Below, piece after piece: positions 46,033 to 46,330 of a stretch of 64,000 nucleotides of DNA (its first letter is position 1; the number at the start of each line of letters is the position of its first letter). Both the position numbers and the translations under genes were made by a program. Below the pieces are notes generated by a model. That model did no database searches. It had not been told where the DNA came from and saw only the letters and a list, made by a program, of their open reading frames with translations. The stretch lies in the NCBI RefSeq assembly GCF_056712565.1, contig NZ_CM160072.1; one strand, written 5' to 3'.

Positions 46033-46191
46033 GCAGAATATTTTGCTGAAAAATAAGGCATGGCCACGCGGGCGGATAACATGAAATCCTGCGAAGTGGC
46101 GAAACGTAAGTGAATAAAAGTAAAAACCCCGTTTGTTGGCACCAAGCGGGGTTTTGTGTTTCCTGACTCCGGAAAAGTCAAAGGAGAAAGT

Positions 46192-46329
46192 GTGTTTGAT
46201 TTTAGCAAACTGATTCGGGAGATTCGAGTGATGGCTGAAAAATTATCCACCTGGAAGTTCATTCTTATCTGGCTGGTGTTTGTGATTATGGCCTCTGGTT
46301 ATTTCATCGGTCAGATACGCTGGTGGTGA
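46192..46329 (+). CDS. Small single-TM protein between endolysin and Rz
   Basis: 45 aa (GTG start, AAGGAG RBS) [45 protein letters not shown]; stop 1 nt before the Rz start. Confidence 0.35.
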
Positions 46330-46330
46330 A

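Follow-up and report, generated by a model that had tools for sequence, protein, structure and literature searches.

A mobile phage cassette at an endolysin/Rz boundary, with a conserved 45-codon membrane-protein gene and a predicted antisense RNA

What is a terminator-like hairpin doing in the middle of a phage lysis cassette, and what is the 45-codon open reading frame (ORF) that lies between it and Rz? These questions are raised by a prophage of Escherichia coli ATCC 11775, which we analyzed within a stretch of 64,000 nucleotides of contig NZ_CM160072.1 (RefSeq assembly GCF_056712565.1), hereafter called the window. A sequence-only reading of this segment had noted the hairpin as an intrinsic terminator after the endolysin gene and suggested that the ORF could be a small membrane lysis regulator, translationally coupled to Rz. 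The elements that it described (the hairpin, the AAGGAG, the GTG start, the 45 codons, the one transmembrane helix and the stop 1 nt before Rz) are all in place. It had missed the existing annotation of the ORF, a frameshift in the endolysin gene, a predicted minus-strand promoter in codons 3-6 and a second covarying stem.

The segment and its 45-codon gene

The segment and the genes on either side of it are organized as follows (coordinates in the window, strand, feature).

45498-46032, + strand: SAR-type lysozyme gene (rrrQ-like), present as two overlapping ORFs and labeled "frameshifted" in RefSeq
46033-46122, no strand assigned: non-coding conserved block from the endolysin stop to hairpin 1 (GAATATTTTGCTGAAAAAT ... 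GGATAACAyrAAATC ... ATAAAAG)
46114-46191, - strand: predicted cis-antisense sRNA of ~78 nt, from a covariance model built on 21 homologues
46123-46155, no strand assigned: hairpin 1, with a 13-bp stem, terminator-like on both strands
46159-46187, no strand assigned: hairpin 2, a short stem whose + strand 3' arm covers the Shine-Dalgarno site
46181-46186, + strand: Shine-Dalgarno AAGGAG, 5 nt before the GTG at 46192
46192-46329, + strand: 45-codon membrane-protein gene with a GTG start (WP_000459345.1; PHROG 6632; identified as such by dN/dS and hydropathy)
46199-46207, - strand: predicted extended -10 of the antisense RNA, TGCTAAAAT, in codons 3-6 (GAT TTT AGC AAA)
46222-46227, - strand: weak, putative -35-like hexamer TCGAAT, 17 nt upstream of the -10
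46331-46795, + strand: Rz i-spanin gene (Pfam Phage_lysis PF03245, E = 1.4e-52)
46551-46733, + strand: Rz1 o-spanin lipoprotein gene, within Rz in another frame (60-aa ORF, lipobox LVVVGC)

The lysis cassette of the window is of the pinholin/SAR-endolysin type. Its holin gene (44590-44805) matches Phage_holin_2_1 (E = 9e-33), while its lysozyme gene is frameshifted in ATCC 11775 at a G-run near 45655 and has its stop codon at 46030-46032. The genes downstream are a two-component Rz/Rz1 spanin pair, as seen from the Phage_lysis match and the embedded lipoprotein ORF. The small ORF ends with a TGA (46327-46329) that a single base (46330) separates from the ATG of Rz (46331), and TGGTGGTGA may be the ribosome-binding site of Rz. 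This anatomy by itself proves nothing, since a simple terminator scan of the 4-kb region returned 4 sites when 4.2 were expected from shuffled sequences, and ORFs are plentiful, with 50 of 25 aa or longer overlapping the 3.3-kb region. A minus-strand ORF of 95 aa (45975-46262), which is annotated in phage CP-1639 and overlaps both the 3' end of the endolysin gene and the hairpin, was treated as spurious.

As for the 45-codon ORF, annotations for it already exist, as a RefSeq hypothetical protein (WP_000459345.1) and as CAH23245.1 in phage CP-1639. It matches PHROG 6632, a family of unknown function, over its full length (residues 1-45 on profile positions 1-45, E = 1.2e-29), and the same profile matches the Salmonella homologue (E = 3.9e-23). 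The family comprises 58 cluster representatives at 50% identity. ORF length is held at 45 codons from E. coli to Salmonella, and the ORF and its hairpin recur together in Salmonella phages (67% amino-acid identity) and in a Pseudomonas phage (about 50%). When nine 45-codon variants were compared, pairwise dN/dS ranged from 0.07 to 0.40, with dS from 0.6 to more than 2 (i.e., with synonymous sites near saturation). This shows that the small ORF is a real protein gene under purifying selection. Since it is both conserved, as far as Pseudomonas phages, and under such selection, it is almost certainly translated, which bears out the sequence-only reading on this point. In 64 kb of DNA, neither a 45-codon ORF nor a hairpin is remarkable on its own, but the idea of a chance ORF next to an unrelated terminator, with no gene involved, is refuted by dN/dS values well below 1 at near-saturated dS, by the preserved length and by the reach of the family, and its probability is negligible. 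The observation is above chance because ORF and hairpin are conserved, the dN/dS values are those given above and, as detailed below, both stems covary.

The encoded protein has one hydrophobic stretch (residues 24-42, mean Kyte-Doolittle 2.13). Hydropathy and hydrophobic moment predict an amphipathic, net-positive N terminus followed by one transmembrane helix, and the protein ends in RWW (IRWW). No Pfam family matches it at E < 0.1, and searches of Pfam, NCBIfam and PADLOC returned no match either for it or for the products of four other small ORFs that follow the same element.

Distribution of the hairpins and the gene among phages

We assembled a diverse set of loci from two subgroup protein alignments, a closer alignment having yielded near-identical E. 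coli loci only. The two hairpins, the Shine-Dalgarno and the ORF stay together across insertion positions in Escherichia, Salmonella and Pseudomonas phages, and the purine-rich GGAG block keeps the same distance to the start codon in aligned homologues. In lysis cassettes, they are found within five endolysin/spanin combinations, and lie between SAR lysozyme and Rz genes (in the window, SP-016 and SPN3UB), between R21-like lysozyme and Rz genes, or between a GH19 endolysin gene and the gene for either a DUF2514 spanin or an Rz-like spanin. Outside of lysis cassettes, they are found between baseplate genes V and W (SEN34), after the major tail protein, tail chaperone T or portal gene, and at accessory positions beside ParE/RelB and HicAB genes. 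The ORF family is likewise not confined to lysis cassettes, with homologues in baseplate, tail, portal and toxin-antitoxin (TA)-island contexts. The hairpin and the ORF are therefore one mobile phage cassette and not a lysis-specific part. The conserved block at 46033-46122 is a companion of this cassette in lysis-cassette contexts only. The hairpin does not belong to the endolysin gene and is not simply its terminator, since it goes wherever the ORF goes, including baseplate, tail, portal and accessory positions that lack an endolysin.

Of 5,426 complete genomes, 870 contain the full 303-nt segment, which many Stx1, Stx2a and Stx2c phages carry too. The initial 156 nt of the query are found in about 2,000 E. 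coli genomes, which exceeds the number with the ORF. Some loci carry tandem copies of the element (three in L021, two in L013), each ahead of a small transmembrane ORF; such tandem copies are typical of type I TA loci. Conservation in DLP12- and Qin-type cassettes, which the sequence-only reading had suggested as a check, does not extend to K-12, in which the lysozyme and Rz genes of both DLP12 (rrrD/rzpD) and Qin (rrrQ/rzpQ) overlap, with no insert between them. In this sense, the ORF is dispensable for a working cassette of this type. Our literature search found no relevant account of either a small ORF lying between R and Rz or type I TA systems in lysis cassettes.

The proposed role as a small membrane lysis regulator survives in part. 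The protein is conserved and single-pass, and its ORF abuts the spanin start at 1 nt in five independent lysis cassettes, in which the spanins belong to three families (Phage_lysis Rz, DUF2514 and PHROG 1026) and the endolysins are SAR lysozyme, R21-like lysozyme or GH19. What falls is its specificity for lysis, because the cassette also sits at baseplate, tail, portal and accessory positions. In its strongest form, this explanation would have the hairpin terminate the endolysin transcript and the 45-aa protein act as a dedicated regulator (antiholin, releasin or spanin-associated) coupled to Rz, with no antisense RNA. It draws on the placement of the ORF immediately ahead of the i-spanin start, with a 1-nt gap or a 4-nt overlap, which is seen in at least six cassettes of differing holin, endolysin and spanin families, on the unrelated small transmembrane ORFs that other prophages place in this slot (ECs_5741, 48 aa; the L004 pair, 60 and 49 aa) and on the type of the window cassette, since membrane-release regulators such as Mu releasin are known in pinholin/SAR-endolysin cassettes. 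However, the same protein and hairpins are found among baseplate, tail, portal and accessory genes with no lysis gene nearby, and the K-12 DLP12 and Qin cassettes, which are of the same type, have none. Furthermore, the protein has neither a holin Pfam match nor a charged C-terminal tail, and the fixed synonymous sites and the second stem described below would be left unexplained. A dedicated lysis regulator is thus quite unlikely.

Insertion between genes that are adjacent in relatives (DLP12 and Qin), at scattered late-operon positions, is also what one would expect of an ordinary moron. According to this explanation, the cassette would specify a small membrane protein (involved, e.g., in superinfection exclusion or host modulation), the hairpin would act as an insulator and the conservation in codons 3-6 would reflect a constraint on translation initiation. 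The order of elements does not fit, because the terminator here is upstream of the ORF and no + strand promoter was seen, which reverses the canonical arrangement. Specifically, a scan found no convincing + strand promoter between the endolysin stop and the ORF, including in the 90-nt conserved block, and visual inspection of the homologues revealed none upstream of hairpin 1.

Covarying hairpins, with a predicted minus-strand promoter and antisense RNA

Hairpin 1 reads AAAACCCCGTTTG-TTGGCAC-CAAGCGGGGTTTT, followed by TTTTGTGTTT, and consists of 13 pairs (six of them G-C) closed by a 7-nt loop. Its + strand folds at -18.9 kcal/mol (z = -3.2; 1 of 200 shuffles as good) and its - strand at -15.6 kcal/mol (0 of 200 shuffles as good). 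Its G+C-rich stem is flanked by an A-run on the 5' side and a T-run on the 3' side, so that a G+C-rich stem-loop with a U-run, from which intrinsic termination is predicted, is present on both strands (GGGGUUUUGUGUUU on +, GGGGUUUUUACUUUUAU on -). Hairpin 1 lies upstream of the ORF in 25 of 27 representative modules, the usual hairpin being missing in L024. On the + strand, hairpin 2 pairs UUUCCU with AGGAGA and holds the Shine-Dalgarno in its 3' arm.

Both stems covary. The stem of hairpin 2 changes across phages from CCTTG/CAAGG to CCTTCTG/CAGAAGG, CCGTTA/TAACGG and CCCATG/CATGGG, with compensatory changes in four of five pairs, as compared to four of nine pairs in hairpin 1. When the two stems are pooled, compensatory changes affect 8 of 14 pairs, and pairing is seen in 92% of cells. 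The covariation score is 0.32, against 0.05-0.12 for slid controls, and none of 500 shuffles reaches the observed value. Mean hairpin stability across variants is -29.6 kcal/mol on the + strand vs. -28.7 kcal/mol on the - strand, with the copy in the window folding better on +. Since the hairpins are equally stable on the two strands, G-U pairs are uninformative as to which strand is transcribed. A permissive cmscan of 43500-48500 against Rfam found no family for the segment, a rimP leader hit (E = 0.84) being a chance match. The same scan, covering 5 kb around the site, gave a real match to STnc100 upstream and, in all, two chance terminator-type matches.

Codons 3-6 of the ORF contain, on the opposite strand, an extended -10 motif, TGCTA[A/T/G]NAT, which is in register in 26 of 27 variants when 1.25 would be expected from the protein sequence and the codon usage of the family, although the variants are related by descent and counts of this kind overstate their independence. 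The Asp codon at position 3 is always GAT and the Ser codon at position 5 always AGC. The third positions of codons 3 and 4 are T in 26/27 variants, at codon 4 irrespective of the amino acid specified (F, I, L or S), and that of codon 5 is C in 27/27, whereas the entropy of third positions elsewhere in the ORF reaches up to 1.9 bits and Phe codon 23 is TTT in 14 variants and TTC in 13. Moreover, the four other ORF types behind the same element have TATACT, TACAAT, TAGACT or TAGAAT inside their first 16 nt. This shows that the -10 motif is conserved beyond coding requirement. The ORF types found behind the element number at least four, and many of them end in RWW.

The putative -35 is weaker, with three of six matches to consensus (TCGAAT in the window, TCGCAA in most homologues), and the codons beneath it are unusually fixed (CGA in 24/27 variants, TTG in 15/27). 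A promoter scan of the region did not flag the TGCTAAAAT site. Another candidate antisense promoter, CTGACC-18-CATAAT (46314-46285), is not conserved in the alignment with SP-016 and was dropped for the conserved TGCTAAAAT. An A/U-rich, unstructured initiation region could partly account for the fixed 5' codons, but not for the invariant AGC. This bears on the moron explanation, because A/U-rich codons are common after weak GTG or TTG starts; however, A/U-richness fails to explain both the invariant AGC and the TAnnnT hexamers in the first 16 nt behind unrelated N termini. We consider an ordinary moron unlikely.

Against a covariance model built on 21 homologues, the - strand of the window scores 71 bits (E = 3e-16) and the + strand 31 bits, and the 64 kb contain a single copy. 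In addition to the protein, the cassette probably encodes a small antisense RNA ending at hairpin 1. This RNA is predicted to be 72-83 nt long across 27 variants. At its 5' end, it would be the complement of the start codon and the Shine-Dalgarno; hairpin 2 would follow, then an A-rich spacer, before the RNA ends in hairpin 1 and a U-run. Because of the predicted minus-strand promoter in codons 3-6 and the second covarying stem, hairpin 1 is likely the terminator of the antisense sRNA; it is possibly also a stop for + strand transcription that is not antiterminated.

Would such an RNA act on the neighboring gene? Its A-rich ARN-like spacer (GGAAACACAAAA in the window, AGAAACAGAAAA in most variants) and U-tail are features of Hfq binding, and the promoter, leader and hairpin unit is constant while the ORF body is swapped. 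The main product might accordingly be a minus-strand RNA acting in trans with Hfq, in the manner of PasB, AgvB or AsxR, the ORF being either a passenger or a target. There is precedent for such RNAs in prophage late regions (PMC4104026; PMC8550237). Nevertheless, the ORFs are under purifying selection and always encode small transmembrane proteins, and the sole conserved single-stranded segment of the RNA is the anti-Shine-Dalgarno stretch, which fits control in cis. An RNA acting mainly in trans is therefore improbable.

In the accessible portion of published prophage sRNA sets (EHEC EcOnc01-33 of 63; EPEC Pas), the locus is absent, and the source strains are mostly without the cassette. The covariance model found no copy in Sakai Sp11, nor in the lysis regions of Sp9 and Sp15, so that the EHEC Hfq-CRAC data, as far as they were available to us, are unable to test the antisense idea. 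In that same portion, we considered the EcOnc10/11/12 triplet (Tree et al. 2014), which turned out to be downstream of Rz and not between R and Rz. PasA, PasC and PasD of EPEC were discarded as the same sRNA, being located upstream of the holin gene.

Proposed working and comparison with known systems

The reading that we favor, with a probability slightly above even, is that 46114-46329 is a mobile cassette at the endolysin/Rz boundary in which a + strand membrane-protein gene is repressed by an overlapping - strand antisense sRNA. The gene would specify a single-pass inner-membrane protein, its Shine-Dalgarno being partly buried in a small stem. The sRNA would be driven by the extended -10 in codons 3-6, starting at about the complement of the start codon and ending at hairpin 1. 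In the lysogen, the late operon would be silent and hairpin 1 would halt stray + strand transcripts, while antisense RNA made constitutively would pair with the 5' leader of those escaping, blocking translation of the membrane protein. Since a terminator hairpin precedes it, expression of the ORF would depend on read-through in the late operon. Upon late transcription, which would be Q-antiterminated in the prophage of the window, the mRNA would outrun the sRNA and the membrane protein would be made late in infection, translation of the small ORF running into the Rz start. We infer the transcript, its repression of the ORF and the activity of the protein from the DNA.

More tentatively, and with a probability below even, this cassette may represent a widespread unrecognized family, in which an Hfq-type antisense sRNA of ~78 nt would act on the 5' leader of interchangeable small transmembrane ORFs, giving silence in the lysogen and a membrane-active peptide once late transcription swamps the sRNA. 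The insertion sites of such cassettes would be exact gene boundaries within the late operons of phages of Escherichia, Salmonella, Pseudomonas and others, and at the endolysin/spanin junction the cassettes would add a new RNA-gated layer for lysis timing or host killing.

Were the antisense RNA real, hundreds of E. coli genomes would carry an unannotated sRNA gene and an RNA-controlled small membrane protein in late operons. This would add a new family to the type I TA-like repertoire of phages, explain the "terminator" in the middle of a lysis cassette and open to testing the way in which temperate phages silence membrane-damaging peptides during lysogeny but release them as infection ends. 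There are also two implications for annotation: hairpins in late operons are not by default terminators of the upstream gene, and a promoter on the opposite strand can be recognized from synonymous sites that are fixed in the first codons of a small ORF.

How does this locus compare with known systems? By description, it resembles antiholins and the Mu releasin gp25 in having a small transmembrane protein encoded beside SAR endolysin and spanin genes. It differs from these small lysis regulators in that the 45-codon family also occurs outside lysis cassettes and has no holin-family match. With lambdoid morons, as far as the sources available to us describe them, it shares the status of extra DNA at a late-operon gene boundary, absent from close relatives and spread by recombination among unrelated phages. 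However, a canonical moron has a promoter upstream and a terminator downstream of its ORF (Juhala et al. 2000, as cited in PMC4104026). In the present cassette, it is the terminator that precedes the ORF, and the sole promoter-like element points the opposite way. Nor could a terminator be accommodated downstream, as a single base separates the ORF stop and the Rz ATG.

A validated RNA with the same layout is PasB, an Hfq-dependent RNA of 83 nt from a prophage of EPEC E2348/69 that was validated by northern blotting (PMC8550237, Table S6). PasB is nearly of the length predicted here. It is encoded in the interval that separates tail genes I and J, is transcribed in the direction opposite to the late genes and overlaps the beginning of a 22-codon + strand ORF in antisense. 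The hairpin at which it ends lies upstream of that ORF and directly follows the preceding gene. The two are not homologous, the best covariance-model score at the PasB locus being 6.6 bits; the small ORF of PasB is not transmembrane, and PasB is described as trans-acting (PMC8550237). The cassette has a further parallel, by prediction, in P22 sar, with which it would share a phage-encoded cis-antisense RNA over a ribosome-binding site. The P22 RNA is about 70 nt long and covers the ribosome-binding site of the late-acting ant. The two are unrelated in sequence; in P22, the RNA targets a soluble antirepressor, and this system is not known to move as a cassette.

Finally, the layout of the cassette would be a match to a type I TA locus of the SymE/SymR kind, in which a cis-antisense RNA lies over the ribosome-binding site; SymE differs in not being a membrane peptide. 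There are other differences from type I TA. We found no separate toxin promoter of the sort that would give a toxin mRNA of 150-400 nt, a terminator hairpin precedes the ORF, and there is no match to Rfam type I antitoxin RNAs or to any toxin Pfam. Type I toxins are small proteins of 20-60 aa, usually hydrophobic or membrane-inserting (T1TAdb, PMC8594479), and at 45 aa, with a single transmembrane helix, the protein falls within this size and hydrophobicity range. It may be compared to Hok, Ldr, TisB and ZorO, its toxicity being putative. Further likenesses are the predicted antisense RNA itself, whose promoter would lie inside the ORF and which would span the Shine-Dalgarno and the start codon, the tandem copies in some genomes and the carriage on mobile elements.

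The small ORF and its setting

The anatomy described in the sequence-only reading was recovered: a hairpin of 13 pairs at 46123-46155 (-18.9 kcal/mol), an AAGGAG ribosome-binding site at 46181-46186, and a 45-codon ORF running from a GTG at 46192 to a TGA at 46327-46329, with a single base between its stop and the ATG of Rz. RefSeq already annotates this small ORF as a "hypothetical protein" (WP_000459345.1), and it belongs to PHROG 6632, a phage family without assigned function; nothing matched it in Pfam, NCBIfam, or PADLOC. This anatomy alone is not beyond chance since shuffled sequence yields terminator-like sites no less often than the DNA around the ORF, and as many as 50 ORFs of 25 aa or more overlap this region.

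It is conservation that takes the small ORF beyond chance. The full 303-nt segment, counted at a coverage of at least 80%, occurs in 870 of the 5,426 complete E. coli genomes and 42 phage records; the ORF itself occurs in 53 phage records, among them H-19B, CP-1639, TL-2011c, and many Stx1a, Stx2a, and Stx2c phages. In the Salmonella phages SP-016 and SPN3UB, this position is occupied by a homologue of 45 codons and 67% identity, which likewise starts with GTG and stops 1 nt short of Rz. Pairwise comparison of nine 45-codon variants gave dN/dS values of 0.07-0.40, with dS from 0.6 to >2. An exhaustive profile search gave 58 cluster representatives of the family, whose pattern (21 protein letters withheld, then /K-F) continues into a hydrophobic segment that ends with a short tail, often RWW. 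The N-terminal 20 residues are net positive and amphipathic (hydrophobic moment 1.55 vs 0.75 in shuffles), while residues 24-42 form the predicted transmembrane segment. The small ORF is almost certainly a real gene and, judged by its sequence, a genuine small membrane protein gene.

Met14 (ATG at 46231) is invariant in all 27 variants. Codon 10 is GAG in every variant, codons 9-10 forming a GGGAG or AGGAG motif 9 nt before this ATG (codons 9-14, 46217-46233), and the rare CGA codon occupies position 12 in 24 of 27. By analogy with holins, in which dual starts occur, Met14 may be a second start yielding a 32-aa form, which some databases annotate as such.

The ORF is part of a lambdoid prophage's late region, within a segment 100% identical, over the length compared, to E. 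coli ATCC 11775 (NZ_CP033092.2).

Features of the lysis region
43662-43871, + strand: STnc100-type RNA downstream of the late promoter (full-length match, 161 bits, E = 3e-37)
44590-44805: phage-21-type class II holin
44810-45154, + strand: YdfR/DUF1327 gene
45120-45392, - strand: antisense 90-aa ORF, PHROG 2411
45498-46032: SAR-type lysozyme, frameshifted in the window strain
46033-46330: 298-nt gap holding the small ORF and hairpins
46331-46795: Rz
46551-46733: Rz1, embedded in Rz

The STnc100 match directly follows the Q/late-promoter region and is adjoined on the opposite strand (43872-43960) by a weak OmrA-B-like match (25 bits, E = 0.13) with a strong terminator at its end, which resembles the convergent sRNA pairs at moron sites of EHEC prophages (PMC4104026). 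The 3' ends of ydfR and the 90-aa ORF overlap, and these convergent genes between holin and lysozyme are another insertion within the lysis cassette. The lysozyme gene consists of two overlapping frames, split at a G-run at about 45653-45662, and is labeled "frameshifted" in RefSeq; the prophage is probably lysis-defective. Despite the frameshift, the antisense -10 element described below is intact, as are the small ORF and its leader.

The leader and the mobility of the cassette

In nearly all contexts, the ORF is preceded at a fixed distance by a G+C-rich hairpin with A-run and T-run flanks (hairpin 1), by TTTCTGTTTC at the same spacing, and by a second short stem (hairpin 2, 46159-46187) whose 3' arm abuts the GGAG site. 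Compensatory changes affect 8 of 14 pairs of the two stems, with 92% of cells paired, and none of 500 shuffles matches their covariation score (0.32 vs 0.05-0.12 in slid controls). Folding of the hairpins is equally stable on either strand; in the + strand fold, the Shine-Dalgarno site is buried in hairpin 2.

A reading of hairpin 1 as the terminator of the endolysin gene was not borne out since the same hairpin accompanies the ORF in non-lysis positions. Homologues lie between baseplate genes V and W in Salmonella phage SEN34 and related phages, within the tail region of Pseudomonas phage YMC11/02/R656, 3' of major tail protein, tail chaperone T, and portal genes, and next to ParE/RelB and HicAB genes upstream of terminase. 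Hairpin 1 is thus part of the ORF cassette (46114-46329). In lysis regions, this unit sits between five different endolysin/spanin combinations, while in K-12 DLP12 and Qin, the type of cassette suggested for a conservation check, the lysozyme and Rz genes overlap and the insert is absent. Together, these arrangements show a mobile cassette for which the R/Rz boundary is one of several landing sites.

In an E. fergusonii prophage (L013, 2177-2660), two cassettes are stacked, with a GH19 endolysin on one side and a DUF2514 spanin on the other. The transmembrane ORF of the first cassette is a different one, of 50 aa, and ends KWW-TGA-T-ATG; behind it stands ATGTCCCGGGTA (MSRV), apparently a remnant of a lambda-type Rz start. 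The stacking and the remnant suggest that cassettes are swapped by recombination at the WW-stop-ATG junction. In GCA_900156195.1 (L021, 2918-5384), three leader copies within 2.5 kb each precede a small transmembrane ORF ending IRWW (one main-family, two of "DAGIV..RLANAALILA" type), interleaved with ParE/RelB-type toxin-antitoxin genes upstream of terminase. In O157:H7 strain ECP19-2498 (L005, 1582-1835), the leader element scores 80 bits and is followed by a distantly related ORF, MRKYKRFFLRLSIMKG...AIRWW, with a GTG start at 1683; its RefSeq annotation is limited to the last 37 codons. A mini-ORF of 8 codons (MGREVLSL) separates this GTG from the canonical Shine-Dalgarno site. Phage CP-1639 (L002, 1516-2300) keeps small ORF, leader, and Rz; the two annotated genes from stx1B to the cassette/Rz are - strand hypothetical ORFs, with no annotated holin or endolysin gene in that interval.

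The proposal of a lysis regulator coupled to Rz is supported in part: what stands is a conserved, almost certainly translated, single-transmembrane ORF abutting Rz; its family, however, extends beyond lysis cassettes. Its repeated presence where endolysin and spanin genes meet suggests a link to lysis, as do the unrelated small transmembrane ORFs that fill this position in other prophages. A different 48-49-aa single-transmembrane ORF (ECs_5741, ECs_5722, ECs_5730; MGWLMISDKLITLVKSLCVLVGISF...) immediately precedes Rz in prophages with an antirepressor gene between endolysin and Rz.

Positions of the 48-49-aa ORF
L196 (O157:H7 Sakai, Sp15) 749-895, - strand
L197 (Sakai, Sp9) 827-973
L198 (Sakai, Sp11) 29150-29296
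L004 (comparison locus) 1836-1985

The slot before Rz is thus repeatedly occupied by small transmembrane ORFs of unrelated families. Before hairpin 1, a 90-nt non-coding block (46033-46122) is kept in E. coli and Salmonella phages with different endolysins, with conserved blocks GAATATTTTGCTGAAAAAT, GGATAACAyrAAATC, and ATAAAAG. It is commoner in E. coli than the small ORF (about 2,000 vs 870 genomes), and searches of it for a promoter or covarying structure gave nothing convincing.

A backward-facing -10 element

Read on the - strand, codons 3-6 (GAT TTT AGC AAA) give TTTGCTAAAATC, a putative extended -10 element, TGnTAAAAT (46199-46207). Of 27 distinct variants, 26 have TG.TA...T in register, vs 1.25 expected from the individual proteins and the codon usage of their family; since the variants are related by descent, such counts are not independent. 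Asp is GAT in 21 of 21, Ser is AGC in 26 of 26, and codon 4 has T at its third position in 26 of 27, regardless of the residue encoded (Phe, Ile, Leu, or Ser). In contrast, Phe at codon 23 is divided between TTT (14) and TTC (13), as is Glu at codon 16 between GAA (14) and GAG (4).

A search with R1, a covariance model of the leader from 21 homologues, found further copies before ORFs with unrelated N-termini (MFKYTPKYQ..., MAKYKRILL..., MKESSNKTN..., MKLYRNFF..., MQPNSS...). Within their first 16 nt, these have the - strand hexamers TATACT, TATACT, TAGACT (with TGC), TACAAT, and TAGAAT, respectively. Since the hexamers stand behind unrelated N-termini, what is conserved is the backward-facing TAnnnT element and not the peptide, and this -10 is conserved beyond coding need.

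A - strand transcript would start about 7 nt downstream of the -10, at the complement of the start codon, and would run through the Shine-Dalgarno site, hairpin 2, and an A-rich spacer to end at hairpin 1, which has a U-run on this strand too (GGGGUUUUUACUUUUAU). The predicted RNA measures 72-83 nt across all variants. In the window, R1 scores 71 bits on the - strand (46114-46191) vs 31 bits on the +, its sole copy within 64 kb. The -35 is weak (3 of 6 positions matched). The EHEC/EPEC sRNA catalogues, in their accessible parts, cover source strains or prophages without the cassette.

Proposed working and known systems

In a lysogen, a constitutive sigma-70 promoter would produce the - strand RNA, which would pair with the leader of any + transcript and block initiation at 46192. 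Hairpin 1 would additionally halt non-antiterminated + transcription, and hairpin 2 would hold basal translation low. Upon induction, Q-modified polymerase would read through until mRNA exceeds sRNA, so the membrane protein would be made late, its ribosomes terminating 1 nt ahead of the Rz start. A separate + strand promoter for the small ORF was sought and none was found. Given this, the weak -35, the strand-neutral folds, and the kinship of the variants, we consider a cassette with an antisense RNA only somewhat probable. Toxin-like activity of the protein, proposed by analogy, is rather unlikely.

No Rfam family matched the element, and our literature search found no description of it. In EPEC, PasB is an experimentally validated sRNA of 83 nt that depends on Hfq and is encoded between the tail genes I and J (PMC8550237). 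It runs opposite the 5' part of a 22-codon ORF to a hairpin just past the upstream gene, a layout analogous to that of our predicted sRNA, without homology to it. In EPEC E2348/69 (L199, 1462-1572), PasB covers the first ~40 nt of this unannotated + strand ORF, MKINVKELFLLLGQKNTNAAKL, an overlap of which we found no mention in the accessible parts of two Pas papers. Type I toxin-antitoxin loci pair a small membrane peptide with a cis-antisense RNA over the ribosome-binding site (PMC8594479); the cassette shares this layout, its antisense RNA being predicted from sequence, and their tandem habit is matched by the three copies in L021 and two in L013. A cis-antisense-controlled small membrane protein is a known kind of system, within which the cassette would stand apart by its bidirectional terminator ahead of the ORF, its exchangeable ORF bodies, and its precise insertion at gene boundaries of late operons.
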